A stretch of 64,000 nucleotides of DNA from Mantamonas sphyraenae STR306 (taxonomy: Eukaryota > Protista > CRuMs): assembly GCA_026936335.1 (NCBI GenBank), contig JAPMXV010000047.1:1-64000 (forward strand). Direction: 5' to 3'. Below the pieces are notes generated by a model. That model was not told the DNA's origin. It saw only the letters and a list, made by a program, of their open reading frames with translations, and searched no databases. Below, piece after piece: positions 7,849 through 64,000 of this stretch. The stretch's first letter is position 1. Every line of letters begins with the position of its first letter. The translations under genes were made by a program, and so were the position numbers.

Positions 7849-8400
7849 TCATGTCTCTATCATTTCAAAGCCTGTCAAGTTGCTCGAACTCATGTGCTGC
7901 TGCCTATCCAGTTGTGCCTGCTGCTTCTCACTCCACACTTGTGTTTCATCGTCGGCGGTTGGATTTTCCAGGTAGATATCGTTTGACCTGTGCGCACCGC
8001 GGCGAAACTTCTTGGCAAGGTCCAGCTCGTGGAAGCTACACGGACATTGACCTTGGGCGCTCGCCTCTCCCCGGCCAGAGGAATACTGACTATTGTCCTG
8101 CTGCGTGCATTTCCAGTGGCGCCGCAGATTCTTGGCCGCTTGGGCCCAGCCGAACAGTTGCTTACCTGCCAGTATGTACGTGGCGTATTTTGGCTGTGCA
8201 CCGTCACCATCTTTCTTCGATCTCTTCATGATGGGCACACCAGCTTTCGATAGAAGTGTTTTCACAGCAGACAGTGTGAATTCTTTGTCCACCTTCTTGG
8301 TGGCCAGCAAGCAGCCATCTGAGGCCGAGTCAACATGTGTGTTGACAACGTCACGGATCTCGGCCAGGGTTTCTGCCGAGACCACTTGCCTGTCCGTCGA

Positions 8401-8432
<32 letters not shown>

Positions 8433-9186
8433 GATCGTCGTCGTTCGTGTTCGGTGTGTTGTACGCACATAACACAATGTCTTCCGGCGCCTTCTCCAGT
8501 TGCCGGAGCTCGTCGGTTGTTGGTATTCCCAGAAAACCCAGAATGCGGTCCAGAACTTCCTTGTCGTCGCTATAGTGCGGTGGTGACGTGTTTGTGCGCG
8601 ACGTGAGCGCATTTGTGTGCTTCGAGTCTCCCTGACAGTTCTCCTGCTCAGTTTCTCTGCAGATTGAAGCGTTTTCTGTGAGCATGTCAGAAGGGCAAGG
8701 TTCTGAAGGCGTTTGCAACGGTTGTCTTGGATTGAATACCAGCCACTGGATGATAAGTGCTCCTTGGGAGAGTCCAACAAAGCCACGAACTCACGGTAGG
8801 GGGATCGCTTCCCAGATACCCAGTTGTTCTGCAGGTGACATCCCGCAGTACAAGTCCACCATGTCCGGTTGCGGTCCGCTGTACTCATCATCATCCCTTC
8901 TTCGGCTGTTTTCATGTTCTTTTGCAATTCTTCCTTGTACTTCTCCTCTGACTTGTCGTTGGTACGATACTCCTCCACCTTTTGCGCGACCTGGCGCAGG
9001 AGCTTCTCGTTGACCTTCTCCAACCGCTGGACCCCGCGGCGCCTTTTCTCGTACCACCGTACATTGTTTTCCGCTTTTGAAGTGGGCGGTGTATATCGTT
9101 GGCACCGAAGCTTGACGGTGGATACGTACAAGCGCCACAGATCTGATGTTGTGTCGAGCTTGTGTCCCGAGCTGCTACTGCTACTG

Positions 9187-9222
<36 letters not shown>

Positions 9223-9769
9223 AGGTCATTGAACTCCTCACTGCTGTCTGGCTCCCCCTGATCCTTCTCAACCCGCTGGTGTTTTGCGACGGGGTTCTCG
9301 TTGTCATCAAACTCACCCCTCGGGCGTCTTCATCGCTTCGATCACGCTTGGAAGGTCGATCTGTGGCGTTCAACTCGTCCTGCGAGTTTGACGGCCCGTA
9401 CGGCACGTTGACGTCGTACACTGGTAGCTGGGGTAGGGTGACTTCACCGTCCACAGTCCAGACATGGACGTTGCTTTCGTATGGTTCCAGGACGATGCGA
9501 GCATGACCATCAACATCTGTGTCCCTCAGGGGATTGGGGCGTCGAAATAGTACACGTTCTGCCCGTTGTGCGCTAGGCCTCGCTCAAGTTGCTGAGCATC
9601 AAACGAAGAGCTTTCTGCTGCGCTCCATTTCGCCAGCAACTCTACCATGAATGCTACATCGCACGGGTCTGAGGATCCCATGTGCATGTCCCGCTGGGCG
9701 TTATGGGGACTTCCAAACAGTCTCTTGTTGCTCAACCTATCCTTGGCATGCTGACGCTTGGCGTACTGG
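7849..9769 (-). CDS. Probable frameshifted C-terminal extension of the UL9-like helicase gene (low-complexity and coiled-coil segments)
   Basis: ORFs 9526-9735, 8912-9454, 8262-9131 and 7849-8718 tile the minus strand directly after 9770. Removing one base from the A5 run near 9791-9795 joins LELLF to KHKKDFDQYAKRQHAKDRLSNKRLFG. Confidence 0.5.
8394..8443. repeat. (GTC)n trinucleotide microsatellite, poly-Asp on the minus strand
   Basis: gtcgtcgtc run visible; encodes DDDHDDDDDDDDDD in ORF 7849-8718. Confidence 0.9.
9171..9221. repeat. (CTG/CTA)n trinucleotide microsatellite, probably poly-Ser on the minus strand
   Basis: gctgctactgctactgctactgctgctg... run visible. Confidence 0.9.
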
Positions 9770-12700
9770 TCAAAGTCCTTTTTGTGCTTGAAAAAGAAGC
9801 TCCAGATTCGCGACGTAATCTTTGTGCCGTCCGACGGAGACCAAGTTCATCTGCGAGCGCAAGAACGCCTCGTTCACATCGTTCGGGACGTTTCGCACAC
9901 GGTTTACCATCTGCACAACCATCATGGGTGATGTTAAGTCGGGTTTCCGCAGAAAAGAGAATGAATCGAACGCCGTGGGCTCGACGCTCACTCCTTCAAC
10001 GATTTTGCTCGTCACAAACGTCGCGTCGTGATCTGCGCAACCTTTTGCCGATTGGCTCCTGGCCATATTGCGGAAAAGCCCTTGCTTTCTCTCGCTTTGT
10101 GCCTTGTGAAAATCGGTCAGCGGAATCCGCTTGAATGTACTCTTGCTCATGGCGTTCAGGTTGCGGACGCTCCGGTCCTGTTCCGTTTTGTCCACTCCCT
10201 TGCCCTTTACCAAGTACACGGTGGGTTTGCGGTCTGTCACAGCGGCTTGGTTTTCGGTGTAGAGCTCGCAGCAGCGTTCAAGGTCATCCACTGCAGAGAA
10301 GATGCGGTAGTCGCGGAGAAACTCCAGGTCAGCCTGTGGACGGTGCTGCCATTCGGCGATCATGCGCTGCAGAAACGTCTCCTGTGAGCGGTGGATGACC
10401 ACGTCCATGCCACGTGGCTTTTCTCGTCCGACTACGATGACACGGAAACGCAGATTGCGGTTGGGAACCAGCCTGCGGATGGTGGAAACCCAAAACGACA
10501 CCGTCTCCGGCGTCAACTCCGCCGAGGCAAAGTACAGCATCTTGGCTGTGATGAATGTGCGCAAAATACAGCCGAGGGTCGCATTAACCGGTGCGTTGTG
10601 TGCCAACGTTTGTTCCAGGAGCTTGCTCGGTAGCCGCGCGATCTCGTCGAGATTGACAAACTCAGGCTCCATGTTTTCGTGGTACACATGGCGCAGCATG
10701 CTCTCCATTGTTGAGACGACGTGTTGCACATCTTCCTTTCTGCGCTTGCCGTTGCGGATGTCATCGTACGAGACGACGCCCGGGAGGTTGTCCATCAGGC
10801 TTGGCAGCAAGGCAGTCCGGTAGATGATGCTCAGCGAGGACTGCAAAAAGGCCGATTCTTTGTCGTCTCCATCTGTGGCATGCATAAGGTAATCGGAGTG
10901 CAGACGGGCGAGGAGAAGCGACTTACCCAGAGCCGTTGGTGCGCACACAAAATAAACAAGCATCGGCAAATTGCCTTCTGCATCCTCAATCTCGATATCG
11001 TCCTGCCCTTCGTAGTCACGGCGCAGATGATCCATGTCTTGCGAGATTTTGGCCCACACCTCCTTGTCGTCTGCGCGACCGGCATGGACAAACACATCCT
11101 GCTGATGGATCTTCTCCTTGAGACCATCCAGCCAATCCTTCTCAGCCCTTTCTTTCTCCAAGTCCGACGCCATCGTTCGGGCGGGCTGTGATTGTATGTT
11201 GTACAGGATGGCGCTCATGAGCACAAGCAGCGTGTCCAGGTCCAAGTTGCACAGATCGGGCGACTTTGGTACCTGGGACACCTTGTGCCGAGGATTCCCT
11301 CCACACACAGCCCAGTTTTCGTCTTTCCGTACATACACGTACACCTTTGGCAAACGAGAGAGGGTGACGCGGATTTGTGTCCGCTCCTCTTGGTCGGTGA
11401 TGATTAGCCGCACCGCACCGTTGCCAAACGCCGAGCGGCGCACCTGTACATCTGCTTCCTCCCAGGTCTTGTCAAAAGCTCCGCTTTCGTCTGTGTTCAT
11501 CGTGTCTGTGGCTGTCTGAGTGTTGCAAGAGTCGCTCGGAAGGCGAGTTGGTATCAGACGCGCAGTCTCCTCCAAGATCCTCCCCAAATAGCGCAAACCT
11601 TCGTGTTGAGCATGCTGGGTGAGAAACGTGGACACGTACTTGTCCAGGGACATTGTGCTCTGCTCGTCGGACGTGTCGAGCCTGTGCAGCAGCCAGTTTG
11701 CCAGCACAGGAGGACACGTTTGTTCAGCTTGCATGGTGTACGGCCACAGAGCACTGGTGGAACTGTACGCTGTCAGTAGCTTGCTGTAATCCTCGCTCAT
11801 CACCAATTTCCGCACCGACTTGTTCCAAGCCTTTTGCTGCACTGTCCCCTTGAATCTCTGAAGGACAGTCACAGGGTGGTCGCTGTTCAAGCCACACATG
11901 GAAGGTGAGTGTCGTTCGGGAAGAAGCATTTCAGAGCACACCATGACGCCACCTAGCTTCTTCTCAATTTCCTTCAGGATCCCCAGCGTGCGCTCTGCGG
12001 TGTCCCGATCCACACGCAAATCCACAACCAGCTGGACGCACACAGATGGATCGTCTTTGTCAGCAGAGCGACGGACCATGATGGTGTACATAACGCTCAT
12101 GAACTCGATGTCCTCGTCCTCGTATTCGCCGACCAGCTTTTGGAGAAACTCGAGCACCACTTTCTTGGTATGCGTCACGTAAACGCCGTCGTTCTCTTCA
12201 TCGCCATCATACCGGAAGTGAACTACCAGTTTGTGATCCATGTCTTGGGCATACGTGGCCTCAGCCAGAGGCACGACGTTCTCCGCTGCATGCTCCTGGT
12301 ACCATCGCAGCATTTTCTCACAGTACCCGGGGTACTCCATGTTGCCAATACCCATGCGCGCCGTCTCTTCGCCGATTTGTACGTACACGGGGCCACCTCT
12401 TTTCCTGTACCTGCGTTCGAACATACCAAAGCCCGTGCCGAGTTTACCCTTGCCTTTTCTTTGCGCTGTGCTCGACGGCTCTTCAGCGTCTTCCCCAATC
12501 CCAACTTTGACTGTAGTGTTGTCTACATCGACTACAATCTCATTCACAGCCTCGTTGCTACCCCTCACAGGCTCGTTGCTACCCCTCACAGGCTCCACTT
12601 GTGTGGCCGGATGGTTGTGCACAGCGAGGGTGCTCTCGGCCGACGGCAGTCCAGTGTCAGTTTCCAGCTCCATGCCATCGACTGTAGCCTCATTCTTGGC

Positions 12701-12886
12701 TTCAGACCGGCTGTCAGACCCCTGCATATCCCCACTGAGCGAAATCTTGATTGGTTGGGGGTGACGGCGCATCACGAACAGGAAAACATACTCGCCTATC
12801 GAGTGCTCCAACCGATGCCGCTGGTGTCCGGACCTGGTCCTGCACGCTGCTTCATCAACCAGGAGGTACCAACTCATCACACACAC
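9770..12886 (-). CDS. Herpes UL9-like replication origin-binding protein (SF2 helicase) with long N-terminal extension
   Basis: Motifs in UL9-family order: YFVCAPTALGKSLLL (I), SIIYRTALL (Ia), VVSTMESML, VNLDEI (II), YFASAEL (III), TSKIVEGVSVEPTAFD (V), VQMVNRVRNV (VI). Confidence 0.75.
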   Translation of the reverse strand: MCVMSWYLLVDEAACRTRSGHQRHRLEHSIGEYVFLFVMRRHPQPIKISLSGDMQGSDSRSEAKNEATVDGMELETDTGLPSAESTLAVHNHPATQVEPVRGSNEPVRGSNEAVNEIVVDVDNTTVKVGIGEDAEEPSSTAQRKGKGKLGTGFGMFERRYRKRGGPVYVQIGEETARMGIGNMEYPGYCEKMLRWYQEHAAENVVPLAEATYAQDMDHKLVVHFRYDGDEENDGVYVTHTKKVVLEFLQKLVGEYEDEDIEFMSVMYTIMVRRSADKDDPSVCVQLVVDLRVDRDTAERTLGILKEIEKKLGGVMVCSEMLLPERHSPSMCGLNSDHPVTVLQRFKGTVQQKAWNKSVRKLVMSEDYSKLLTAYSSTSALWPYTMQAEQTCPPVLANWLLHRLDTSDEQSTMSLDKYVSTFLTQHAQHEGLRYLGRILEETARLIPTRLPSDSCNTQTATDTMNTDESGAFDKTWEEADVQVRRSAFGNGAVRLIITDQEERTQIRVTLSRLPKVYVYVRKDENWAVCGGNPRHKVSQVPKSPDLCNLDLDTLLVLMSAILYNIQSQPARTMASDLEKERAEKDWLDGLKEKIHQQDVFVHAGRADDKEVWAKISQDMDHLRRDYEGQDDIEIEDAEGNLPMLVYFVCAPTALGKSLLLARLHSDYLMHATDGDDKESAFLQSSLSIIYRTALLPSLMDNLPGVVSYDDIRNGKRRKEDVQHVVSTMESMLRHVYHENMEPEFVNLDEIARLPSKLLEQTLAHNAPVNATLGCILRTFITAKMLYFASAELTPETVSFWVSTIRRLVPNRNLRFRVIVVGREKPRGMDVVIHRSQETFLQRMIAEWQHRPQADLEFLRDYRIFSAVDDLERCCELYTENQAAVTDRKPTVYLVKGKGVDKTEQDRSVRNLNAMSKSTFKRIPLTDFHKAQSERKQGLFRNMARSQSAKGCADHDATFVTSKIVEGVSVEPTAFDSFSFLRKPDLTSPMMVVQMVNRVRNVPNDVNEAFLRSQMNLVSVGRHKDYVANLELLFQAQKGL
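12546..12594. repeat. 21-bp in-frame tandem duplication (EPVRGSN x2)
   Basis: ctcgttgctacccctcacagg occurs twice in tandem; the protein reads VEPVRGSNEPVRGSNEAV. Confidence 0.85.
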
Positions 12887-12981
12887 ACATACGCCAGCTA
12901 GGCTGACTTTTGCGAGCTGGTGCCCGTACTGTTTAGCATCACTGTGTCAAGAACAAGGAAATTATAAAGCCCACCTTCTTT

Positions 12982-13413
12982 TTATGCTTCTGCTTCATCG
13001 TCTGGGATGGAACGTCGGTTGCGCCGGCGGGGGAGAATTATCTCGTCATCGTCATCTCCAGAGTCGTCCACATCGCTTCCGGAGTAGCATGAGCTGTTTA
13101 AATCGTCAACATCCACATCCAAGTCACTCCAGTTGGCATAGCCGTAGTTGTCCTCCTCATCAGACCCCTCGTTGTAGTACCACTGATCGTCCTCATCTTC
13201 CTCACTCGTCCAACGGTTCTCGTCCTCCTCGTCACTGCTTGTAAGCTCAATGCACTCCAAAAACTCGTCGTCATCCGCAATAAACTGCCTCATCTCCTCC
13301 TCCTCCTCCGAGTCCATAATCTCCTCCTCCTCAAATTCGTCATCAATAAAACGGAACCCGTACCCCCCTACTCCACTGATGGTTTCACCCCTATCTTCCT
13401 CGCCTCTCATCAT
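12982..13413 (-). CDS. Highly acidic small protein with basic C-terminal patch
   Basis: 143-aa ORF dominated by D/E, ending LPRRRNRRS. Probably extends upstream into ORF 13391-13591 via a frameshift. Confidence 0.55.
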   Translation of the reverse strand: MMRGEEDRGETISGVGGYGFRFIDDEFEEEEIMDSEEEEEMRQFIADDDEFLECIELTSSDEEDENRWTSEEDEDDQWYYNEGSDEEDNYGYANWSDLDVDVDDLNSSCYSGSDVDDSGDDDDEIILPRRRNRRSIPDDEAEA

Positions 13414-13752
13414 CTATTCCTTCTTCCAGTTCGTACCCGCTGCGGTAGTCTGCATCGTTGTCATCGACAACAATGTTGTGGTCATCATCGCCATCGTTCA
13501 TCGTTGGTGTGTTCAACGAACCGATTGCACCACTCGGCATCGAACCAGAGCACTTGTTTTCAGAATCACCTTTAATTGACTGATGGGTCATTTGGCGAAC
13601 TACACAACGTTATCTTGGCACAGCTGGAGCATTGCGAGGCACATCTGCTCGCGAGACTACCAATTGGTTTAACGTTACCAAAGTACAATACAACACCACA
13701 ACAATACGATACAGACAGTTTTTGTTCACATGACCTTGGACATCTTCACCGA

Positions 13753-14111
13753 TGGGTGGTTCCTGACGATGACCCGGGGTCCGGACTCGAGCTTCATCGT
13801 GAAAACCACACTTCTCACCCAGCCGACCCCACCTCTCAAAAAAAAAAAATCATAGGATGGTATATATATACAACTTTTTTTTTTTCGCCACACGACCTTG
13901 GGTGGTTCCTGACGATGACCCGGGGTCCGGACCTGAGCTTCATCGTGAAAACCACACTTCTCACCCAGCCGAGGCAAGACCACCCCACCTCTCCAAAAAA
14001 AAAAAATTCATAGGATGGTATATATATACAACTTTTTTTTTTCGCCACACGACCTTGGGTGGTTCCTGACGATGACCCGGGGTCCGGACCTGAGCTTCAT
14101 CGTGAAAACCA
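13753..14111. repeat. Tandem array (periods 146 and 157 bp; three GC-rich cores, two AT-rich spacers); candidate origin/terminus element
   Basis: Core TGGGTGGTTCCTGACGATGACCCGGGGTCCGGACCTGAGCTTCATCGTGAAAACCA starts at 13753 (variant), 13899 and 14056. Spacers read A-tract-TCATAGGATG-GTATATATATAC-AAC-T-tract. Confidence 0.9.
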
Positions 14112-14210
14112 GTTGGTCGAACGCTCATGGGCTGGCTCACAGTGTCTGAAGCCATGGAGCCACAATGCGGTGTTTGGCATCGTCTACAATACACTAGAGC
14201 AGAGGCACGT

Positions 14211-16515
14211 TCATTCGACAATCATCTCCGCGCTTTGTTTTTCTCTGTGAGAGATGGCCTTGCGGAGTGCAGCCACAAACGTCTTTGTGGTGGGCCCAAT
14301 ATAGCCTTCGTTTTCAACCGCCTTGGATCCTTGCATGAGTAAATCCAGGGCCTTCAACATTCTCACGTTGGTCTGTTTGCTCAGCGTCTCGCAGAGCTTG
14401 TCTTCATCGTCAGTTTCGTCGACATCCAGCAACGGGTAGAGAAACAACCCACGCTTGCAGCGAGTCAAAGCAACGTAAACGAGGTTCAACGACTCGTCCG
14501 CGTTACCTTGCGTGCTGGCAAACAGGTCAACGAGTCCGAGGATGTGCACATTCCCGCGATCGGCCCCCTTAGCTTTGTGTACCGTCGAGATCTGGATCTT
14601 GAAGAGTCCGTTGCCATCCATGGCGTCTGCTGGAGCGTGCATAAAGTCGTTGAAGCGCTGCTGGAGTTCGTGTACCCCCTGCTCATGAACGAGATCATCC
14701 CGCTGCAAGTACCGCCACCCTCGCACAAGAGCCACAGTTCGCAACATCATCGACACCCTGCGGTTCGCACCTCTGATGCTCCTGAAGAACTGCTGGACGT
14801 CCTGGCGAGTGTCGAAGCGACCGACCACGGCTGTGCGGCCAACGCCCTCCGTGTCGGCAACTTCTTCGGGTCCGAGCATCACCTGCAACTCGCGTTCGAC
14901 GAACCCCTGCGCGGTAGATCGCCACTCTTCCACATTCGTATGTTCTTCTGAGCCCCCGTGTTTGCTCCACCGACACTGGAGCTCAGTGCAAACTTGGGCG
15001 TACTCGTGGCCGCGATTGTCTGCAAGGAAGAATTGGTCGTACACAGCCAGCAACACACACTGCTCCTGGTTGTTGCGTACGATCAATAGGTCATCGTTTT
15101 CTGCCGTGGTCGCTCGGGGCAGCTCCTCGCGCGGCCCAAACGTACCTTGCGCAACGACGTCCTTGTCAAACTCGATTGGGGTGCCCAACGTCTCCAGCAC
15201 TGGTGCCATCTTGGAAAACACGCGACGTGTGAGTTTCAGCTCCAGGGTGTTCGTTCGCATCCCCTGGTTCGAGGCTTCCTCTTTCAGAGTGGCAAGCGCC
15301 GTTGGTGCCGCTCCTAGTGACAGGTTGATGGCCTGGCGCTTGTCGCCAAACACTGCAAGTATGCTGCCCTTCTTTTCCGTCATGCGGCGGGCAAATTCGA
15401 TCATGGCGGGAGTGCAGTCCTGTGCTTCGTCCACAATGAGCAGAGGGGCCACCATGTGCTTCTGCGGCAAGGAATCTGCGCCTGTGATGTTTGCCACGTA
15501 CACCGCATCTGGCATTGACACAATGCTTGTCATGTTGTTGGCAAACAGCTCGGCTGGCTTCAGCACCAGGCACACGAGCTCGGTCAGCACGCCCCGCTCA
15601 AACTCTGCCCCAAGCGCCTTTTTTTTCCAGTCCAGAGTGAGTGCGCAGATTGCGTTCCGTGTTGATCATGTGGTATACTTCACTCTTGTCGTTGCCAATG
15701 TTCATCTGCATGCAAGCCTGGCTGTAGAACTCAACCAGCGTTCGCAGCACCTTTTGCTCGACGCTCCTGACCAGCGGCGCATACTGCTGACAGCACTGTG
15801 TCAACACAGGCTTGGCAAACTTTACAATGTTTTGGTAGTGTCTCTGACACATGTCCCGAATTTCCTGGTTGTTGGTGCTTGCCTTGGACGCGTCGGCTCG
15901 TTTGACAAATTCGTTCGTAAGCTTGGTCACGTTTTCGCATAGGTACGAGTCAATGCGCTCATCGTCGATCTTCATGCCCTGTTGCATGTCAGCGCTCGCT
16001 CTGCACAGTACCTGCACAAAGTATCTCGGAAGAACCGAGCTCGAAGAGCTCGAATCAAACGTCACCGCTCCCTTTGCATGACTGCCCAAATCGCTCATGG
16101 CCTTGGAATGGAAAGTGCACACGTGCACACCATCGTCACTCCGCTTTGCCGCCACCTTGACTCCAGCTCGCTCGAGTGCCTCCTTCAAATCGTTCGCGTT
16201 GGCGCGGTTGAACACCAGCACATACAGAGCTCGGTCGGTCGTCCACCGATTCTCTCCACCCTCTTCTCTGAGGACTTCCTTCACAATAACCCTGATCACA
16301 GTCGACTTGCCCGCACCCGGCACTGCCTCAATCACAAGCCCCACCGCGTCCTTCTTTCGCGTCGCGGCCACTATCAAATCGACAAGCTCCCTCTGATCCC
16401 TGCTCAATGGCCTCTCTGTTGCTCTGCAAACATCTCCAGCCGATGCGGATGACGAGCAAGGCTGATCCAGGTGCTGCGTCGAGTCTGAAACGGCGCTCGC
16501 GTCTACTTCGTCCAT
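14211..16515 (-). CDS. UvrD/Rep/FBH1-like SF1 DNA helicase (~767 aa when joined; 1-nt frameshift at T8 run 15619-15626)
   Basis: AVPGAGKST (I), LVFNRANA (Ia), TFHSKA (Ib), IVDEAQD (II), FGDKRQAI (III), STVHKAKG (V), VYVALTRCK (VI). The right-arm copy has 7 A at this run and reads through. Confidence 0.9.
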
Positions 16516-16533
16516 GCGCCATGCCCGTGGGGG

Positions 16534-16839
16534 TTAGTTATTGTTGTAGAGGTGTTTATGTTTTACCAACCACGTAATTTGGAACCGTGTGTGGACGTTT
16601 GGGGGGCACGTACCAAGGTCAATGCGAGCCTGTTTCTTTGGCTGGGGCAGTGCCGCTGCAACTGTCGAAATCCACTCGTCCTCCTGGTACGACTCCTCAA
16701 TACTTGCTGAACGTGCACGTTTGCGCCCTTCTTCGTCGTGGGGCTGTGAACCTGCATCGGGCTGGCTCGTTTCGTCTGCCAGGACAATGTCACCAACACT
16801 CTCATCGACAGGGTCGATTTCCGGGATATCGATGTCCAT
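16534..16839 (-). CDS. Small acidic hypothetical protein with NLS-like motifs
   Basis: 101-aa ATG ORF ending 18 nt before the helicase start; contains RKRARS and KKQARI. Confidence 0.55.
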   Translation of the reverse strand: MDIDIPEIDPVDESVGDIVLADETSQPDAGSQPHDEEGRKRARSASIEESYQEDEWISTVAAALPQPKKQARIDLGTCPPNVHTRFQITWLVKHKHLYNNN

Positions 16840-17058
16840 GATTGCTTGTTTGCGTCTTGTGAGTGATCGAGCGGATTACTGTGACGTGCAAAGTGCAATC
16901 GCGTTGAGTTGCCTCAGACGGGGCAACCACGAGCTGCAGACCAAGTTGGACCGACAGGGCCACAGTGATGCTCCCACGCCCCTCAGAGCTTCCTCCATGC
17001 CCACACAGGTCGACACATCCATCTGTCAACCAGTAGTCCATGTATGGTCCCTGTTTGT

Positions 17059-17385
17059 GGTTTGTTTCGTGGTCCCGGACTTGGTCCGGACTGGACCTTC
17101 ATCGAAACCTCCAGTCACACGAATTGATGAGGTGAAATGAAAAGCCAAAAAATCAAAATACACCCGATTTTACGATGACCAGTGGGTCCGGACCTGGTCC
17201 GGGCCCAGGCTTCATCGCAAAACCAATCACAATCCACAGTGTGTGTGACCAAAGAGTGTGTTGGTACATGTGCGGAACTGTCCTCCCAGGACTTGGTCCA
17301 GGACTCACTGATATCGAAAGCGGTGAGCGAAACGACACGAACCCGACGATGAGAGTGGTCCCGGGCGAGGTCCAACCAGGCCCAC
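17059..17385. promoter_or_regulatory. Cluster of degenerate copies of the GGTCCGGACC core element in a divergent intergenic region
   Basis: 17168-17225 ttttACGATGACCagtgGGTCCGGACCTGgtccgggcccagGCTTCATCGcAAAACCA matches the 13.75-kb core. Weaker copies near 17060-17110, 17285-17305 and 17346-17385. Confidence 0.7.
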
Positions 17386-17434
17386 CACCTTGATTGGGTG
17401 AAAGGTGTACACCTCCTTGTGAACCACACAAGTC

Positions 17435-20650: not shown

Positions 20651-20655
20651 TAGGG

Positions 20656-46088: not shown

Positions 46089-46148
46089 TCAGAGTCTTCC
46101 TTGAAGCAATCTATGAGAATGCCCACCACTAAACCCGACACAATCGGT

Positions 46149-50790: not shown

Positions 50791-50949
50791 CCACCTCACC
50801 TCGTATATCCTTGTATGGCCAATCCCACCCACCCTCGTACCTGCCCCGTCCCCGTCGGTACAGGAACACTGAGTTTGTTGCATCCAATCTTGACGAAAAC
50901 GCAAATTTTCAACCAACTGCCGCTTTGCGTCCAACTACCCAACCCAACA

Positions 50950-51237: not shown

Positions 51238-51588
51238 AGCCCGTTTCTTGGTTTTCCCTCCCAAAACCAAGCTCGCCTTTCACGTGGCTATCACGGCTCT
51301 GTTTCCATATGCCACCCACACAGCACGTTCAGGTAGAGTTGGAAGGGGACAGGCACGTGCACATCGACACCCGATAGGGCTACAAGAGGCGACTGGGACC
51401 TCCCAGAGCATGTGTCCCTCGTTGCCAGGCGTCCTTGCGCTCAACCGACACGTGTTACTGTCCATCGTCGAGGGCATGGAGGTTGCATTCGTCAAAGGCG
51501 CGCACAAACCCGTCGGTGTTGACAAACCCATCCTTGTTGAGGTCAACCATGCGACTCGTGGTGCGCTGAGTGCAAGCCCAGGTTGCCA

Positions 51589-52227: not shown

Positions 52228-52275
52228 AACAAGCTTGTACAAGCCACTGGTTCCATCTCGGAATGCGACAACATC

Positions 52276-53884: not shown

Positions 53885-53951
53885 GCTCCCAGACGGCCAT
53901 CTACGTGGAGGGTCACATTGGCACATTTCCCTCATGCATTCCTGCGCCCGC

Positions 53952-54749: not shown

Positions 54750-54821
54750 GCTGTAATCTTCACCGTAGTGGGCCGCCCTTTGTCATGTCACGCACCGTTT
54801 CTTCTGCACAACTCCCCTCCT

Positions 54822-56111
54822 TCACTCTCCCACACGCTGCCGCTTCCCTCCCACTCTGCCCTGGTCCTCCCGCTCCCCCCTCACACCCCTGTGTGTCTTG
54901 TTCCGCCCCCCACGTCCCTTTGCACGTCTCTCACAGCCCTCGACGAACTGTGCGACCCAACCGCACACGCGCTGCAGCACCTCCATCTCACCCACGCGCA
55001 CCCACCCTGCTCCTCCTCCTCCTGCTCCTCCTCCCACTGCCTCCATGACCAACACCGTCTCGACAGCGTCGTCCACGTCTTCACTCCACAACCAATGCCA
55101 CGCTGGTCTCCACGCTCTGGCAGTGGCCATTGTCCGCGCCGAATATGCGTCCAGCCACCCCTCTGCGGTCAAATCCGCGTCTGCCCCTAGTCTCCGCAGC
55201 ATGTTGGCCATCCTGACGTCGCCTCGCTGCACCGCGCGCATCAACGGTGTGGTTCTGTCTTCAAAGAACGCGTTCACCGACACGTTCAGCTCGCTGACCG
55301 CCCAGGCCACCGCCACTGCGTCTCCTCTGTCCACCATTTCCAGCATTGTCTTGACCATCCACCTGTTCTCCCTCACTCCGTCCACGTTGCACAGCTCCTG
55401 GCTGTGGCCCAGGTACCACACGTCTGTGTTGCCGCCTGACAGCGCCTTGCCCAGCCTGTCCAGTCCGTCGTCGCCCACGCCGTTGTTGCTCAGGTCCAGC
55501 CGCTGCACCGTGTGGTTGTGCACGAGTGCGTCGCCGAGTAGCATGGCGCCAAAGTCGCCCATGTTGTTTCCGTCCAGGTTCACTGTGTGCAGCCGTGTGT
55601 TTTCCACAAGGACTGCCGCCAGCACAACAACGCCACGGTATCCGATGTCGTTGTCCTCCAGACCCAGCACCTGCACACCGCGGTTCCCAATCAGCCCTAC
55701 ACCCAGTTTTTCCATACCGCTGTCCCCCAAATCATTGTTGCCCAGATACAGGCATGCCAGCGTGTTGTTCTTTCCCAACATCCGTCCCAATGCGCGTGCA
55801 CCGTCCACACCCAGCTCGTTTGCCTCCAGATGCAACACACGCAGGGTGGTGTTGACACACAGGGCGCTGGCAATGGATATCACGCCGCCACGTCCCAGTT
55901 CGTTCTCGCCGAGCTCCAACGTGTGCAACTGTGTCGAGCGACGCAGCAAGCGAGCGACTGCGCGTGCGTCGTGTGCAGACAGCAGGTTGCGTGACACGTC
56001 CAGGTCGTACGCTTGCTCTCTCCCCTCCACCAGAGCCTCGGCCTGCGCCTCCCAGTCTCCCTGTTTGCTCATGTCGATGGCTACCATGCGTTTTGTCTGC
56101 CGCGCTGTCAT
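54822..56111 (-). CDS. LRR + ankyrin protein (repeat copy)
   Basis: Identical translation to 22503-23792. Confidence 0.9.
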   Translation of the reverse strand: MTARQTKRMVAIDMSKQGDWEAQAEALVEGREQAYDLDVSRNLLSAHDARAVARLLRRSTQLHTLELGENELGRGGVISIASALCVNTTLRVLHLEANELGVDGARALGRMLGKNNTLACLYLGNNDLGDSGMEKLGVGLIGNRGVQVLGLEDNDIGYRGVVVLAAVLVENTRLHTVNLDGNNMGDFGAMLLGDALVHNHTVQRLDLSNNGVGDDGLDRLGKALSGGNTDVWYLGHSQELCNVDGVRENRWMVKTMLEMVDRGDAVAVAWAVSELNVSVNAFFEDRTTPLMRAVQRGDVRMANMLRRLGADADLTAEGWLDAYSARTMATARAWRPAWHWLWSEDVDDAVETVLVMEAVGGGAGGGGAGWVRVGEMEVLQRVCGWVAQFVEGCERRAKGRGGRNKTHRGVRGEREDQGRVGGKRQRVGE

Positions 56112-57455
56112 CTTGACCGCGGTTCAGTGATGGTGTGGACGAGACTACGCGCACGAAAAGCCCACCATGGCCGATTGATGCCACCTGTGCGTGTGGGTGC
56201 ACACGTCTTCGACCCCCCCTCCGTGTCCAGCTTCGAAAAAATGCACAGATTCTCTGGAGCTGCCGCAACTACACTGACCTCCCCCCAGTGTGCTCACCCT
56301 CACTGGACACTCTATTACACCCTTTCCAACCCCTACATCCACATGGGAGTCCTGTAACGACCTGGATCGACGATGGGAACACTCTTTCCGTTTGTGATGA
56401 GCACTATGGCACTGTTTGTACGAAATTGGTGCATTATGTCCAAACCGGGTATTCGCATTGCCACCGCATCTCCCTCACATCCCACCACACCATCACCCCA
56501 GAGCACAATTGCACCGTCGTGTGAGACATCACACGCATCGATGGCACCCCTCGAGACTTCATCCACACCACCGTGGACACTCTGAAAATGATAGTCCACC
56601 ACGCCCACATCCCACAATGAGTGGAGACACCACCCCCTCCCAGGCCCTTCCTCCACCAATGTACACTGTAAAACTTTGTCCTCCTCCCACATTGAACCCA
56701 CAGGGAACAACCATCTGGTGTGCAACGATCGAAACAAGCGACTAGCGACACAAGCCACCCCAATCACCAGATACCTCCTGCTCGTTCACACCTCGAGTAC
56801 ATCCTGTTTCCAGCAAGGTGAGCCATGTACTGCAATAGACGCGACTCCCACGGGCCTACCAAGCACTTTCCCTTCTCTCCACCATCTTCCTACTTTTTCC
56901 GTTCCCACAAAGCAGCCAATCACCCCTCCCTCTTTGCAAACCGTACATGAATCCACACCCTTATCCTATACAGGAGACTGCGTCTTGCTCACAGCGCAAC
57001 TCAACCATCTCGCCGGAGGACATCACCTCATCACAAATTTTTTTCGTCACACTCACCTACAACGACGCGCCGACACATCGATGCATGGAAACACACCACA
57101 CAACCACACACACACATATACACTTGTTCATTCACGCGTTTGTGGTCACTTCCCAGTTGGTGCACGTCTCGCGTGCAGGGGCGACGAAATCCGGACGTAG
57201 CAGTCCATATACCCGTCCCGTGCAGCCATGGTCATTCTGTGATGGTGTAGACGCCACGTCGTCCATGTGCTTTCTGTGCCTGCTTCGGCTCCCTCGACAA
57301 TCGGTAGCTTTGAGCAAGAACGAGCTCGCTGAGAAGGGGCTGCACTATCAGGCACGCTGTCACGCGGTGCAACCCATGTGCTTGGCGGGGTTCCGCATGC
57401 AGACCCCAGGCCGTTCGAGTTTGGGTGTCTCTTGCCTCCTCCTCTGGACTGCATC

Positions 57456-57959
57456 TCACCGAGCGTGTCTGCGCCTTTTTCTGTGCGGCGGGCCCTCGTC
57501 CTCTTGAAGGAGGTCTCCAGAGGACCACGAGCAATCGTATGGGTCGTCTATGCTGCGATCTTGCAGCGGAGAGGGATGTCGCTTTGTCCTGTTGCGGTGG
57601 AGAGTTTCTGCTGACGAGGTGTTCTCGAGATCCATTGTGGTGCTGTTGTTGCGCGCTGAAGGCAGGGACTCGATGTCCATGTGCGAGGTGCAGGGTGTGA
57701 TGTAGGTGAGATCACCTGCGAGCTGGAGCCACCTGATAATCTCGACCAGGAGGGTCTGCATGTCAGGGGGTAACTGGGTTCTCCGCGTCATTTGTCGTTG
57801 TTGTTTTGGACCAGCCGGCGCAGTGCAGGGATTGCAATCCACGTCTCTATATCCCGCCAGCATGGAAAACCTTGACTGTGTGTGGATGGTGTGGGTTGCT
57901 GGCGACCGATGACCAGAGGCGCAGTGGTGCAGGGTTGGTGCGGTGGATCGGAAAATCAT
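57456..57959 (-). CDS. Hypothetical protein (repeat copy)
   Basis: Mirror of 20656-21159. Confidence 0.4.
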   Translation of the reverse strand: MIFRSTAPTLHHCASGHRSPATHTIHTQSRFSMLAGYRDVDCNPCTAPAGPKQQRQMTRRTQLPPDMQTLLVEIIRWLQLAGDLTYITPCTSHMDIESLPSARNNSTTMDLENTSSAETLHRNRTKRHPSPLQDRSIDDPYDCSWSSGDLLQEDEGPPHRKRRRHAR

Positions 57960-57964
57960 CCCTA

Positions 57965-60900
57965 CTAGATATCGGCATAGTCATTCCAGGGGTCTGTCGG
58001 CATGGGCCGGATGCCTGTTTGTGGCCAGCAGTCCTGTTCTGTTGGATGCGTCGTGTTTGTGGACACGGAGGCGCTCTTGTTGCGCAGAAAAAGCTGGATC
58101 ATCGACGGGAGGAGTTTGTCGGTGACCGTGTCCCAGCGCTCGCGGCAGTCAATCAAATCGTCGTCGTCGTCCGAATAGGAAGGAGGGACCCAAGGGAAGG
58201 GGAGATCTTTCAGGCGGGAACGGAGGGCACGGTAGTCTGCGGTGCAGCGAGAGTACTCACGATCAAAGAGAACCGAGCCGAGCTCCCACCACGTGGCCTC
58301 GTACGGAAACAGCTTGGTTGCGTCGATGGTGTCTTTGCCTTCCAAAACGGACAAGTACTTGACTTCTCTGGGCACGCGAGTTTTGGAACGCGAACGGTTT
58401 GCGTTGTTTGACGCGCGGCTCTTTGTGAGTGCTTTGAGAGTGCTGTGGTCGATGAGGTTTGCAAAAACGTGCGGGAGGTTGATGATCTCCCATTCGTGGA
58501 GCACTGTCCCTTGCACGCGTGTGGAGGGCCAGGAGTCCTTGCGGAGTTGCTGCAGGTGATCCAAGGGTCCATTGGATTCTGTGTTGCCAGCGGAGCCATG
58601 GCGGTCTTCCTCGTCGGACGAGTCCTCACTGACCTGCGGATGGGGGGAAAGATTCTGCAGCCGCCAGTGCAAGAGCCAGGCAAGTTTGAGTGCGAAGCGT
58701 GGGTACACGTAGTGGTTGCGCACAGTCCAGGCCCTCTTCATACGAGCACGCCATTGTCGTGGTTCCATGAGAGGGACAGATTCTTTGGCTGTGTCATAGG
58801 TGAGGCAGGGAAAGGCGTTCTGAGCCATCAGGGCGGCGTCGAGATTGGCTGCAACAGGGCAGGTGGCCGGACAGAAGGGTTGTTTGGCCATCCACGCAAA
58901 GGCGCCAGGGTGCTCGCTGTTGTTCAAAGAGGAGCTTGAAGCGCGACCCGATGGCTTTGGATCCCACAGAAGAAGGCCGGCGTCGCTGTCGAAGCAGTGG
59001 ATCCAAAGGAGTGGGCGACAGATGCTTGTGTGTTCGGTTGCCGTCGATGTCTTGTGCATGTTGCTGCTGAGATAGGCACGTGGCGACATCCAGGCGGTCG
59101 CCGCAAAGCGGTACACGGCATGTGCAGCCAACTTGGCGACTTGCTTCTTCTGAGCGATGTGGTGGACCCATGAACATGTGATAGCTCGGGCAATCGGCAC
59201 GCCGTGGTGGGGGGCTGCTCGGTCCGATCGAATCAGGCACTGTACACAATAGTCTGAGGTGACACTGTAGCCGTTCATGGCTTTGACATTGTGTTCCCAC
59301 GCGTCGTGCTGTCGTTCGAGCAAGCCAACCAAGGAGTTCCGCCAGGCCTTGCGCAGCACTGTTCGCTCGCAGTCGTTCGTGTTGGCGGCTGCAGCGTCCT
59401 GATCTTGCTGAAAAGCGTGTGCATGAAGTTCATGGGCACGATGTAGCTCAGTTTCCAACAGAATTTGGAGCGGTAGGGGGTAATCGTGGAAGGGTTCGAT
59501 GGACTCGAGCTTGTCGAAAACGGGCACGAGGACGTGTTCTTCCACGTCTTTGTACCAAGCGCCAAGTTTGCACAGCGGGACTACACCCACAAATGCCAAG
59601 CACGTGAGTATGGCCAATTCGTCCTCAGACGCGCTGTCGCTCCTCGCCTGGGAACGAATTTCATCCGCAAACTGGCGAGCCTTTGTCAGGTTCTCCTGGT
59701 GCTCAGCAGTCACCCGCTGGGCAAGCAGAGCCGCCTTGCAGAGGGTCTGTGGATTGGTGGTGGCAATCAGACTCGAGCGCATCGACGGGAACTCGCGAAA
59801 CCGTGTTGCGTTGGCACCGTGTTTGGGGTCCATCCAGAAGCAGATTAGTGTCTCCACAATATCGACCCTCTCCTGACTGTTGTTCTCAAGAAACGTTTGA
59901 CAGTATTTGTTGATGACACTCTCTGGCTCAGAGGTGAGTTTGCAGCTCGAACCATGAACCCACAGCGGCTCCTTTTTGTTGCCTCCACGCTGGTGTAAAA
60001 GCTCTTCAATGGACGACATCCAGTTCTCTGCGAGCGCTTCCAGTGTCTCTCTTTCCTGCTCATTCTCTTTGTCCAGCGAGAGCAGCTTGGCCTGAACAAG
60101 GGTGGCTGCCTCCAGCTCCACGCTCATCAAACGTCGCTCGTCAACTTCCAAAGCCGGTGTGCTGTCAATGCGAACATCCGTGAGGTGGAATGCAGGTCGA
60201 ATGATATTGCGATTCATACCTCCATAGTAGGTCCAGGAGTGGCACCCAGTGTGTTCCCAGAGCACTGTGAGCGGGATCAGCCCCGAGAAACTTGCATAGA
60301 CCACCAAATCCCACTGGGCTGAAGACATGTTTGATGTACACACATATGCACTGTTGACAAATTGCCTCAATTTCTCGTAGGAGGTAAGCAGGGGCTCGGG
60401 AGGCGGGAGGTCCAGTGATGCTGAGGCGGCCGCCCACACGAGCGCTTTCACTTGACCAGGGGTTACCTCGCCGCCTTGATACTGTTGAAAAGCGGCAACT
60501 AGGTTGCTCTTGGGGTGCTTAGCATTGGGTCCTAGGTGTGTGAGCTCGTTCTTGTTGATATCTTCGATCAGCTCCAAGGTGATGCTCTCGTATGTGTGCT
60601 TGTCAGGCAGCTGGTGCTTTGAAGGTGAAGCAGGGGCCTGTTGGTCACCATTGGGCTGCAAGTAGTGGCGACGGGCACAGGATGTCCACACATGCGCGCA
60701 TTCGGTACGTGTGAGTGCATGACCTGGGCCGGGATGGAGGTTGCAAGAGGGGAAACCCACCGTGCCGTTTGGGGTCTCGGAGCTGGAGCTGGAGCTGGAG
60801 CTCGAAGATGCAGATGGGGTAGACTCTACCCGGGACCGCTTAGGTGCGTGGTCAGTTACAGGGTCAATGCTCTGCGGCTCCTCTTCTTGCTCTTGTTCTT

Positions 60901-61180
60901 GGTCCCCGAGCCGGATGGGCACTTGCTGCGCAGCCACCTGGACGCCAAATCGGCCACCCCCCTTGCGTCGCTGGTGCTTGGCGGACCTCTTGCGTTTACG
61001 TGATGCTGCAGGTCTATCTCTACGATGTGTGGCTCCCCAAACATTGCCCTCCTGTTGCTCACTGTTCTCCATGGAGCAGAACAAAGGGCGGCTTTGGTGG
61101 GTTCTGCGCAACTTGCTTGGCCCCTTTGTCCTCTTGCTCAACGTAATCAACGTATCGACGACGGAGCCCACAGCGCCCAC
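57965..61180 (-). CDS. Large hypothetical protein, 1071 aa (repeat copy)
   Basis: Identical translation to 17435-20650. Confidence 0.75.
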   Translation of the reverse strand: MGAVGSVVDTLITLSKRTKGPSKLRRTHQSRPLFCSMENSEQQEGNVWGATHRRDRPAASRKRKRSAKHQRRKGGGRFGVQVAAQQVPIRLGDQEQEQEEEPQSIDPVTDHAPKRSRVESTPSASSSSSSSSSSETPNGTVGFPSCNLHPGPGHALTRTECAHVWTSCARRHYLQPNGDQQAPASPSKHQLPDKHTYESITLELIEDINKNELTHLGPNAKHPKSNLVAAFQQYQGGEVTPGQVKALVWAAASASLDLPPPEPLLTSYEKLRQFVNSAYVCTSNMSSAQWDLVVYASFSGLIPLTVLWEHTGCHSWTYYGGMNRNIIRPAFHLTDVRIDSTPALEVDERRLMSVELEAATLVQAKLLSLDKENEQERETLEALAENWMSSIEELLHQRGGNKKEPLWVHGSSCKLTSEPESVINKYCQTFLENNSQERVDIVETLICFWMDPKHGANATRFREFPSMRSSLIATTNPQTLCKAALLAQRVTAEHQENLTKARQFADEIRSQARSDSASEDELAILTCLAFVGVVPLCKLGAWYKDVEEHVLVPVFDKLESIEPFHDYPLPLQILLETELHRAHELHAHAFQQDQDAAAANTNDCERTVLRKAWRNSLVGLLERQHDAWEHNVKAMNGYSVTSDYCVQCLIRSDRAAPHHGVPIARAITCSWVHHIAQKKQVAKLAAHAVYRFAATAWMSPRAYLSSNMHKTSTATEHTSICRPLLWIHCFDSDAGLLLWDPKPSGRASSSSLNNSEHPGAFAWMAKQPFCPATCPVAANLDAALMAQNAFPCLTYDTAKESVPLMEPRQWRARMKRAWTVRNHYVYPRFALKLAWLLHWRLQNLSPHPQVSEDSSDEEDRHGSAGNTESNGPLDHLQQLRKDSWPSTRVQGTVLHEWEIINLPHVFANLIDHSTLKALTKSRASNNANRSRSKTRVPREVKYLSVLEGKDTIDATKLFPYEATWWELGSVLFDREYSRCTADYRALRSRLKDLPFPWVPPSYSDDDDDLIDCRERWDTVTDKLLPSMIQLFLRNKSASVSTNTTHPTEQDCWPQTGIRPMPTDPWNDYADI

Positions 61181-61229
61181 GACTTGTGTGGTTCACAAGG
61201 AGGTGTACACCTTTCACCCAATCAAGGTG

Positions 61230-61556
61230 GTGGGCCTGGTTGGACCTCGCCCGGGACCACTCTCATCGTCGGGTTCGTGTCGTTTCGCTCACCGCTTTCG
61301 ATATCAGTGAGTCCTGGACCAAGTCCTGGGAGGACAGTTCCGCACATGTACCAACACACTCTTTGGTCACACACACTGTGGATTGTGATTGGTTTTGCGA
61401 TGAAGCCTGGGCCCGGACCAGGTCCGGACCCACTGGTCATCGTAAAATCGGGTGTATTTTGATTTTTTGGCTTTTCATTTCACCTCATCAATTCGTGTGA
61501 CTGGAGGTTTCGATGAAGGTCCAGTCCGGACCAAGTCCGGGACCACGAAACAAACC
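61230..61556. promoter_or_regulatory. GGTCCGGACC core-element cluster (repeat copy)
   Basis: tggttttgcgatgaagcctgggcccggaccaggtccggacccactggtcatcgtaaaa at 61390-61447. Confidence 0.7.
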
Positions 61557-61775
61557 ACAAACAGGGACCATACATGGACTACTGGTTGACAGATGGATGT
61601 GTCGACCTGTGTGGGCATGGAGGAAGCTCTGAGGGGCGTGGGAGCATCACTGTGGCCCTGTCGGTCCAACTTGGTCTGCAGCTCGTGGTTGCCCCGTCTG
61701 AGGCAACTCAACGCGATTGCACTTTGCACGTCACAGTAATCCGCTCGATCACTCACAAGACGCAAACAAGCAATC

Positions 61776-62081
61776 ATGGACATCGATATCCCGGAAATCG
61801 ACCCTGTCGATGAGAGTGTTGGTGACATTGTCCTGGCAGACGAAACGAGCCAGCCCGATGCAGGTTCACAGCCCCACGACGAAGAAGGGCGCAAACGTGC
61901 ACGTTCAGCAAGTATTGAGGAGTCGTACCAGGAGGACGAGTGGATTTCGACAGTTGCAGCGGCACTGCCCCAGCCAAAGAAACAGGCTCGCATTGACCTT
62001 GGTACGTGCCCCCCAAACGTCCACACACGGTTCCAAATTACGTGGTTGGTAAAACATAAACACCTCTACAACAATAACTAA
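61776..62081 (+). CDS. Small acidic hypothetical protein (repeat copy)
   Basis: Mirror of 16534-16839. Confidence 0.55.
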   Translation: MDIDIPEIDPVDESVGDIVLADETSQPDAGSQPHDEEGRKRARSASIEESYQEDEWISTVAAALPQPKKQARIDLGTCPPNVHTRFQITWLVKHKHLYNNN

Positions 62082-62099
62082 CCCCCACGGGCATGGCGC

Positions 62100-64000
62100 A
62101 TGGACGAAGTAGACGCGAGCGCCGTTTCAGACTCGACGCAGCACCTGGATCAGCCTTGCTCGTCATCCGCATCGGCTGGAGATGTTTGCAGAGCAACAGA
62201 GAGGCCATTGAGCAGGGATCAGAGGGAGCTTGTCGATTTGATAGTGGCCGCGACGCGAAAGAAGGACGCGGTGGGGCTTGTGATTGAGGCAGTGCCGGGT
62301 GCGGGCAAGTCGACTGTGATCAGGGTTATTGTGAAGGAAGTCCTCAGAGAAGAGGGTGGAGAGAATCGGTGGACGACCGACCGAGCTCTGTATGTGCTGG
62401 TGTTCAACCGCGCCAACGCGAACGATTTGAAGGAGGCACTCGAGCGAGCTGGAGTCAAGGTGGCGGCAAAGCGGAGTGACGATGGTGTGCACGTGTGCAC
62501 TTTCCATTCCAAGGCCATGAGCGATTTGGGCAGTCATGCAAAGGGAGCGGTGACGTTTGATTCGAGCTCTTCGAGCTCGGTTCTTCCGAGATACTTTGTG
62601 CAGGTACTGTGCAGAGCGAGCGCTGACATGCAACAGGGCATGAAGATCGACGATGAGCGCATTGACTCGTACCTATGCGAAAACGTGACCAAGCTTACGA
62701 ACGAATTTGTCAAACGAGCCGACGCGTCCAAGGCAAGCACCAACAACCAGGAAATTCGGGACATGTGTCAGAGACACTACCAAAACATTGTAAAGTTTGC
62801 CAAGCCTGTGTTGACACAGTGCTGTCAGCAGTATGCGCCGCTGGTCAGGAGCGTCGAGCAAAAGGTGCTGCGAACGCTGGTTGAGTTCTACAGCCAGGCT
62901 TGCATGCAGATGAACATTGGCAACGACAAGAGTGAAGTATACCACATGATCAACACGGAACGCAATCTGCGCACTCACTCTGGACTGGAAAAAAAGGCGC
63001 TTGGGGCAGAGTTTGAGCGGGGCGTGCTGACCGAGCTCGTGTGCCTGGTGCTGAAGCCAGCCGAGCTGTTTGCCAACAACATGACAAGCATTGTGTCAAT
63101 GCCAGATGCGGTGTACGTGGCAAACATCACAGGCGCAGATTCCTTGCCGCAGAAGCACATGGTGGCCCCTCTGCTCATTGTGGACGAAGCACAGGACTGC
63201 ACTCCCGCCATGATCGAATTTGCCCGCCGCATGACGGAAAAGAAGGGCAGCATACTTGCAGTGTTTGGCGACAAGCGCCAGGCCATCAACCTGTCACTAG
63301 GAGCGGCACCAACGGCGCTTGCCACTCTGAAAGAGGAAGCCTCGAACCAGGGGATGCGAACGAACACCCTGGAGCTGAAACTCACACGTCGCGTGTTTTC
63401 CAAGATGGCACCAGTGCTGGAGACGTTGGGCACCCCAATCGAGTTTGACAAGGACGTCGTTGCGCAAGGTACGTTTGGGCCGCGCGAGGAGCTGCCCCGA
63501 GCGACCACGGCAGAAAACGATGACCTATTGATCGTACGCAACAACCAGGAGCAGTGTGTGTTGCTGGCTGTGTACGACCAATTCTTCCTTGCAGACAATC
63601 GCGGCCACGAGTACGCCCAAGTTTGCACTGAGCTCCAGTGTCGGTGGAGCAAACACGGGGGCTCAGAAGAACATACGAATGTGGAAGAGTGGCGATCTAC
63701 CGCGCAGGGGTTCGTCGAACGCGAGTTGCAGGTGATGCTCGGACCCGAAGAAGTTGCCGACACGGAGGGCGTTGGCCGCACAGCCGTGGTCGGTCGCTTC
63801 GACACTCGCCAGGACGTCCAGCAGTTCTTCAGGAGCATCAGAGGTGCGAACCGCAGGGTGTCGATGATGTTGCGAACTGTGGCTCTTTGTGCGAGGGTGG
63901 CGGTACTTGCAGCGGGATGATCTCGTTCATGAGCAGGGGGTACACGAACTCCAGCAGCGCTTCAACGACTTTATGCACGCTCCAGCAGACGCCATGGATG
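62100..64000 (+). CDS. UvrD-like SF1 helicase (repeat copy; extra T at 63886-63888; runs off the window)
   Basis: Motifs I-IV in the 606-aa ORF; the left copy has TT at this position and reads through. Confidence 0.9.

Follow-up and report, generated by a model that had tools for sequence, protein, structure and literature searches.

A UL9/CyRepA1-family helicase gene, palindromic boxes and a very long inverted repeat in Mantamonas sphyraenae: a candidate nuclear replicon

The DNA considered here comprises positions 1 to 64,000 of contig JAPMXV010000047.1 from Mantamonas sphyraenae STR306 (the window, 64,000 nucleotides in all), and the element in question is a possible selfish replicon within its segment 7849-64000. 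Established in this assembly are a gene for a UL9/CyRepA1-family helicase of superfamily 2 (SF2), an array of palindromic boxes parted by AT-rich spacers, a UvrD helicase gene with its intron, a very long inverted repeat and, with a weaker family assignment, a gene for a recombinase-like protein (Table 1). The UL9-like helicase, the array and the spliced UvrD gene are together likely to form a replication module. The window has 55% GC. Its genes are closely packed, spliceosomal introns are present, and eukaryotic families are represented (HSF, SET, LRR/ankyrin and SBBP propellers). Short-read evidence was taken from four public runs of one organism and study (X1-X4), which hold 72-95% of the words of 7800-17700.

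Table 1. Features of the window (ORF, open reading frame; X4, one of the short-read runs)
Feature	Position	Strand	Remarks
SET gene	947-1570		Pfam; outside the 7849-64000 stretch
UL9/CyRepA1-family SF2 helicase, likely replication initiator	7849-12877	-	One ORF of ~1,675 codons; translation may start later, at 12727
Degenerate box copy	12808-12862		~100 bp upstream of the end of the X4 helicase-gene contig
Small, very acidic ORF	12982-13413	-	No family
Candidate origin	13755-14115		Three ~55-bp imperfect palindromic boxes; TRF period 157
UvrD/Rep-type superfamily 1 helicase	14211-16839	-	838 codons; GT-AG intron 16503-16613; second copy on + strand, right arm to window end
Inverted repeat, left arm	14615-27772		Extent that finds a partner within the window
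Four box-like elements	17062-17385		Accompanied by 11-bp GGTCCGGACY iterations; UvrD and ORF17543, which diverge, lie on either side
Orphan ORF17543	17543-20650	+	1,035 aa; covered by X4 contigs; copy at 57965-61072 (-)
LRR/ankyrin gene	22503-23792		Left arm; Pfam
HSF gene	24730-26338		Left arm; Pfam
LRR gene	26387-27667		Left arm; Pfam
Unique central segment	27773-50841		23 kb between the arms; 2,153-aa Cys-repeat protein, membrane protein, decayed glycosyltransferase-like and methyltransferase-like genes, orphans
Probable tyrosine-recombinase-superfamily protein	39718-40908	-	396 aa; candidate residues R207, K239, Y335/R337, H374, Y384
Inverted repeat, right arm	50842-64000		Ended by the window end

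Two helicase genes and the box array

An earlier note on this DNA had placed a UL9-like helicase at 9770-12886. The family assignment was borne out, but the gene is longer than proposed. When six indels from the short-read contigs, supported by all four runs, are applied, seven of seven segments are stop-free and the frame runs from 12877 to a stop at 7849, a net 1,676 codons. The apparent stop at 9770 is an error in the window, and a reading of the split frames at 7849-9770 as a pseudogene was rejected.

Sequence comparison by three routes places the protein as a divergent member of the UL9/Herpes_ori_bp/CyRepA1 family. For residues 620-1030, the top two ESM Atlas clusters score 0.98 and 0.97, and PF02399 occurs in 20% and 53% of their members, respectively. 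The NCBIfam CyRepA1 model matches with E=1.5e-5 and 24.1 bits, which is below its curated cut-off of 200. As a profile, 36 bacterial Rep stretches give the helicase 10.4 bits, in comparison to 3.0 for the best shuffle (0/200 reach the score). Additionally, SF2 motifs I, Ia, II, III, V and VI (APTALGKS, IIYRTAL, LDEIA, FASAEL, TSKIVEGVSVE and QMVNRVR) align with those of six bacterial Reps, and a profile of the helicase plus these six retrieves herpes simplex virus (HSV) UL9 structures with E~1e-21, a match owed chiefly to the bacterial rows. There was no direct match to PF02399 at E<=1, and none in Pfam, PHROGs or PDB sequences, HSV UL9 structures included. The CyRepA1 model exceeds its cut-off in 29 of 121 cyanobacterial genomes.

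The N-terminal part is less distinctive. Residues ~230-350 are predicted to adopt a ferredoxin/palm-like fold in beta-alpha-beta-beta-alpha-beta order (single-sequence AlphaFold model, pLDDT 39), and a fold search returned generic ferredoxin-like matches only (best Z 7.3). It is possible, from the modelled fold, that this region is an archaeo-eukaryotic primase (AEP) as in mimivirus R8; no AEP primase family in Pfam matched it.

The second helicase gene, annotated earlier as a UvrD helicase at 14211-16515, kept its identity and gained a new start. PF00580 scores 56.5 bits (cut-off 23; E=4.4e-15 on the right-arm copy) and PF13361 scores 33.9 bits (cut-off 25.6), and the ATG at 16839 lies in frame behind the intron. 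The split of this frame at 15619 is a homopolymer error in the left copy, and the corresponding pseudogene reading was rejected. Run X4 contains two GT-AG joints, 6037-6170 and 16502-16614 (minus strand), and its contigs cover the genes for both helicases as well as ORF17543, which is likely to be part of the replication module. Across the array X4 depth falls to ~1, and within 16.0-17.3 kb it is 3-5; these values are unsuited to ranking genes. X4 thus appears to be a transcriptome, in which case the module is transcribed and spliced, and the pattern fits transcripts of a live module.

The boxes of the candidate origin have ACGATGA / TCATCGT outer arms enclosing GGTCCGGAC. Two ~50-bp A-tract/TATA/T-tract spacers (82-84% AT) part them, and no other 50-mers in the non-redundant 50.8 kb (1-50841) are as rich in AT. 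In the same interval, GTCCGGAC has six copies against 0.93 expected, every one within 12826-17193, and similar boxes occur nowhere outside 12.8-17.4 kb and the mirror copy of that interval. A composite box motif gave 5 matches against 0 in 100 shuffles, a significance that is overstated since the pattern was made from the copies themselves. The palindromic array of the earlier note stands as three boxes with AT-rich spacers, but the boxes are imperfect, and only one of eight stretches (17165-17225, z -4.9) folds better than all 200 shuffles.

The array is likely to be a replication origin; a promoter role is also possible and is compatible with it. The spacing between box arms differs among copies, unlike that of a fixed-spacer recombination site. 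Varying arm spacing suits protein-binding iterons or operators more than recombinase or telomere-resolution sites. The box motif had 0 occurrences in viral contigs, and occurrences in 96 metagenome stretches were taken as chance, none of these being related by tblastn or blastn.

The inverted repeat

The inverted repeats of more than 13 kb that had been described around a unique segment are present, with 14615-27772 pairing inverted with 50842-64000 at 99.954% identity over 13,160 aligned columns. The arms differ by three homopolymer indels and three substitutions, the latter all within 30 bp of the inner end and one of them 28 bp inside the repeat boundary. The right arm exits the window end, and the 13 kb arm length is thus a lower bound. 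The left arm probably extends leftward beyond base 1. Short-read contig depth is level over 1-20000 (X1 264-281, X2 189-194, X3 about 9-12). Therefore, either the arm exceeds 30 kb, so that the initiator gene and the array are duplicated too, or the repeat is an artefact.

If the repeat were an assembly artefact, for instance a long-read chimera produced by fold-back or amplification, there would be no repeat-unique-repeat layout and the helicase module would be a single-copy insertion. Amplification can generate false inverted duplications (PMC6218980), and such an origin is consistent with the level depth of X1, X2 and X3 over paired and unpaired parts of 1-20 kb, with arms that differ essentially by homopolymer errors only, and with the noisy left end of the window, where 1-8392 has 87 gaps relative to the short-read contigs. 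In contrast, a 23 kb spacer separates the arms, and level depth is equally expected if the whole of 1-27772 is arm. Both inner junctions are intergenic, even though rough gene spans cover ~88% of the sequence (~1.4% by chance). Indel density relative to the short reads is 28.4/kb at base 1 and declines smoothly to 0.17/kb at 14-20 kb, a gradient to be expected where numerous reads extend outward from the junction. The intergenic junctions, the substitution 28 bp inside the boundary and the smooth gradient favour a real repeat, which it probably is; the artefact explanation is unlikely.

Two other readings of the repeat were discarded: a replicated telomere junction is ruled out by the 23 kb spacer, and an rDNA palindrome was rejected. 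ORFs in 1-8392 are unreliable. Base 1 is probably near a contig end, and short-read contigs reach about 3.2 kb to its left. The window contains no Rfam family, tRNA or telomeric repeat array, and one TTGGGG-type doublet only.

The recombinase-like gene ends ~400 bp from the symmetry centre of the repeat (39307), where there is no palindrome. Separately, a 37-bp perfect inverted pair with dissimilar flanks (35080-35116 and 46050-46086) lies 10.9 kb apart in the unique segment. An unrelated 6.5-kb X1 contig (18 nt shared) has a depth of 44, one sixth of the 264 of this region; the region would be multi-copy if that contig is single-copy host DNA, but the contig may equally belong to another organism.

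The recombinase-like protein

The recombinase-like gene lies 23-26 kb away from the replication module. Its product probably belongs to the tyrosine-recombinase superfamily, judging from sequence resemblance. In the ESM Atlas it scores 0.94 (113-121 of 256 features shared), and 16 of 30 matches fall in PF00589-bearing clusters and 14 in unnamed ones, with none carrying PF16684. No match was obtained in Pfam (PF16684 included), NCBIfam, PHROGs or PDB. The ordered set R207-K239-Y335/R337-H374-Y384 is complete, with spacings of 32/98/37/10. Its K, H and Y are clear and its arginines are register-dependent, aligning in other registers to H195 and W329 (integrase) or, for the second arginine, to Y343 (best protelomerase). 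A single-sequence AlphaFold model has a pLDDT of 38, and fold searches with it were nonspecific.

A protelomerase-like character, also proposed earlier for this gene, is suggestive without being significant. The protein fits protelomerase and integrase profiles about equally weakly. It scores 3.3 bits on a 38-sequence protelomerase profile (0/500 shuffles as high) and 3.2 bits on a 40-sequence integrase profile (5/500); the integrase comparison is confined to that set, a lambda-Int scan having given near-identical copies only. The hhalign scores are 23.1 and 21.0, respectively, each above all 60 shuffles, with probabilities near 3% (protelomerase 2.7-3.5%, P 0.012-0.017), and the profile P values are 0.012 and 0.016. 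With a narrower protelomerase profile, 5 of 1000 shuffles reach the score of the protein.

It is very unlikely that the segment is a linear virus or plasmid replicon with long terminal inverted repeats on which this protein, as an active protelomerase, makes hairpin telomeres. In its favour, the last 60 residues recall TelN (S.A.Y, DP.W, LGH.D, HY..F; BLASTP E=0.024), no shuffle (0/500 and 0/60) reaches the protelomerase scores, and the candidate R-to-H spacing is nearer to that of protelomerases than to that of integrases (23). TelA likewise has a Tyr before the second Arg, with catalytic spacings of 31/80/28/11 (PMC3558466). The absolute scores are nevertheless tiny, the integrase profile does about as well, and the Atlas rows are PF00589 or no family. 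Across the 26 of 38 protelomerases measured, the spacings range over 26-29/70-96/28-33/8-13 (medians 26/82.5/33/9), and the first and third spacings of the present protein are outside these ranges; its second arginine aligns to Y343 in the best register. The hairpin-telomere resolution put forward in the earlier note was not borne out: the longest palindromes in the window have 12-bp arms with a 5-bp spacer or 10-bp arms with none (20 bp gap-free), in comparison to the 56-bp telRL repeat of N15. No telRL-like palindrome was found in the window; the molecule ends lie beyond it.

As for the alternative of Flp-like inversion, homologous recombination would suffice between arms of this length, and no recombinase need be involved. 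Yeast 2-micron/Flp, Cryptons and Starships are eukaryotic tyrosine-recombinase elements; 2-micron has inverted repeats of <1 kb and Starships carry large cargo. None of the three is known to encode a UL9-like initiator, and the recombinase families of these elements gave no Pfam match to the present protein at E<=1.

Cyanobacterial replicons provide a comparison that bears on the protelomerase. Four of four contigs picked for the pairing carry a CyRepA1-type Rep and a protelomerase (PF16684) on one small contig. Their Rep helicase motifs align with those of the present helicase, a likeness that covers the helicase domain only, whereas their resolvases score 198-384 bits on the protelomerase profile against ~3 here. 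They also differ in being bacterial and in having no match to the present UvrD on those stretches. The four contigs span 18-36 kb and are themselves candidate linear hairpin-ended replicons; a literature search found no paper that connects 'CyRepA' with such replicons.

Phaeovirus genomes and endogenous viral elements (EsV-1, FsV-158) are likewise nuclear giant-virus DNA, with inverted ends, a tyrosine recombinase, a telomere resolvase and some introns (10.1101/2025.09.15.676377); the resolvase and inverted ends lend the protelomerase some precedent. Together with the cyanobacterial contigs, they supply precedents for the combination suggested in the earlier note. They also have a telRL-like site and full cores of nucleocytoplasmic large DNA viruses (NCLDVs), neither of which was found in this window, and EsV-1 itself has no origin-binding protein (OBP). 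Also very unlikely is the reading of a capsid-less, intron-bearing linear nuclear plasmid of >85 kb, with terminal repeats of >30 kb that each carry a UL9-type origin, a central protelomerase and hairpin telomeres. By analogy, such a plasmid would be a eukaryotic counterpart of the cyanobacterial CyRepA1-plus-protelomerase replicons.

Ancestry and possible working of the segment

The segment is best read, with a probability of roughly 0.45, as a nuclear selfish DNA replicon of large-virus or plasmid ancestry in a protist-like nucleus. The nuclear (spliceosomal) setting and the mobile-element origin of the earlier note hold up, whereas its large DNA virus is unproven: capsid, packaging ATPase/terminase and PolB genes were undetected in the scanned window ORFs with Pfam, PHROGs and NCBIfam. 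Intron-rich mirusviruses, however, have no PolB (PMC12768974).

The working of such a replicon can be inferred as follows. The UL9-like protein would bind the GGTCCGGAC boxes and melt the AT spacers, UvrD would extend the unwinding, and host polymerases, proposed because no polymerase gene was detected, would copy the element. As the same boxes lie upstream of module genes, the initiator or ORF17543 could also regulate these genes through them. Homologous recombination would keep the arms (probably >30 kb) identical and flip the 23 kb core. The recombinase-like protein, if active, would most likely serve integration, excision or dimer resolution; alternatively, it may be a partly degenerate DNA-binding relic. 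The cargo genes, for HSF, LRR/ankyrin and secreted and membrane proteins, would have been acquired from the host as passengers, some of them now decaying. By analogy, the element may work like a CyRepA1- or NCLDV-OBP-driven replicon.

A rather unlikely alternative is that the segment is an ordinary part of a chromosome, accessory or subtelomeric, where a stretch has recently been duplicated in inverted orientation. Genes of an old viral insertion would be domesticated or stranded there, the boxes would be promoters and there would be no autonomous replication. The spliceosomal introns, eukaryotic cargo families and host-like codon use (relative synonymous codon usage r=0.90 between four module genes and the cargo) are all compatible with this, as are the undetected virion and polymerase genes and, in one register, the replacement of both recombinase catalytic arginines (H195, W329). 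Stranded UL9-like OBP genes have a precedent in endogenous Ectocarpus DNA (PMC2373305). In contrast, the initiator, array and second helicase adjoin and are intact, the boxes are confined to the module, and no housekeeping family apart from UvrD was found by Pfam in the ORFs scanned (41 plus further ones) over 51 kb.

Several observations weigh against a replicon. The Walker A motif of the helicase (APTALGKS) is slightly degenerate, boxes with AT tracts in front of genes may simply be promoters, and codon use gives no hint that the module was recently acquired from elsewhere. Run X4 carries the label 'DNA?', the search for runs listed no RNA run with this stretch, and the RNA nature of X4 is deduced. 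The X1 depth does not rise in the paired arm (264, against 264-281 over 1-14 kb), which would equally be expected from an artefactual duplication, and the analysis revealed neither ends of the element nor a target-site duplication, a circle junction or an excess in copy number. The linkage is also known from one genome only, since no homologue of the three enzymes was found. Among near-length proteins, 0/3,774 candidates were homologous to the recombinase-like protein, 0/7,758 to helicase residues 600-1035 and 0/7,997 to UvrD; exact protein look-up matched 0/10; and viral contigs, GTDB genomes (0/37 candidates), plasmids and PDB sequences yielded no relatives, remote ones being possible.

The replicon reading gains context from known UL9-type systems. 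UL9-like helicases are present in SmDNAV/skiaviruses, mimivirus, African swine fever virus (ASFV) and mriyaviruses (10.64898/2026.08.29.747986; 10.64898/2026.07.28.741200). The NCLDV primase-helicases (mimivirus R1/R8, ASFV pF1055L, and those of SmDNAV/skiaviruses and mriyaviruses) and the Ectocarpus OBP genes share with the present gene a Herpes_ori_bp-family SF2 helicase in a long protein with an N-terminal extension, and a eukaryotic nuclear setting. No sequence-level match to these proteins was obtained, and the fold of the N-terminus is only generically ferredoxin-like; NCLDVs also differ in their capsid, A32 ATPase and VLTF genes, undetected in this window.

The herpesvirus oriS consists of UL9 boxes around an AT-rich spacer, and the present array likewise places boxes around AT-rich spacers beside a putative origin-binding SF2 helicase. 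Initiation described earlier as herpes-like is right as to the UL9 family and the origin-like array but too narrow, and a herpes-specific label was rejected: the family, which is reported from viruses and plasmids, takes in both cyanobacterial CyRepA1 and the primase-helicases of NCLDVs, and nothing peculiar to herpesviruses was found here. Motif II is DEVM/DEIM in herpesvirus UL9 (PMC13483431) and DEIA here, and the present helicase is twice the length of UL9. Herpesviruses differ in ICP8, UL5/8/52, PolB, HK97 capsid and terminase, which were undetected in the window.

Each part of the segment has precedent. The full set (UL9-type initiator, array, spliced UvrD, recombinase-like gene, very long repeat and no virion genes seen) was not found in the literature searched. 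If it replicates autonomously, the segment would be a plasmid-like replicon of a eukaryotic nucleus, which is a rarity; its compact initiator-origin pair could be tested directly and might be turned into a vector for an unusual lineage. Hairpin ends, if a resolvase makes them, would mean that a nucleus maintains ends without telomerase in a case other than phaeoviruses. As a mere relic within a duplicated region, the segment would add one more endogenous viral remnant.

The eukaryotic cargo reported earlier was confirmed by Pfam for HSF, LRR/ankyrin and SET (the last outside the segment), but CRAL-TRIO had no Pfam match and was rejected as an established call, and the GT61 match, to part of a gene interrupted by in-frame stops, is weak (E=0.084). 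The glycosyltransferase-like (35381-36720) and methyltransferase-like (45900-46900; labelled by eye) genes of the core contain in-frame stops and frameshifts and, from their sequences, are probably pseudogenes. The 2,153-aa protein (28407-34868, plus strand) probably starts at 27820; it has acidic and coiled-coil parts, no family found, and about four Cys-rich repeats, two of them 97.5% identical in DNA, with a signal-peptide-like start in the upstream ORF. Two paralogous genes for secreted SBBP-type beta-propellers are present at 3582-4718 and ~5900-7703, the second with a GT-AG intron at 6038-6169.

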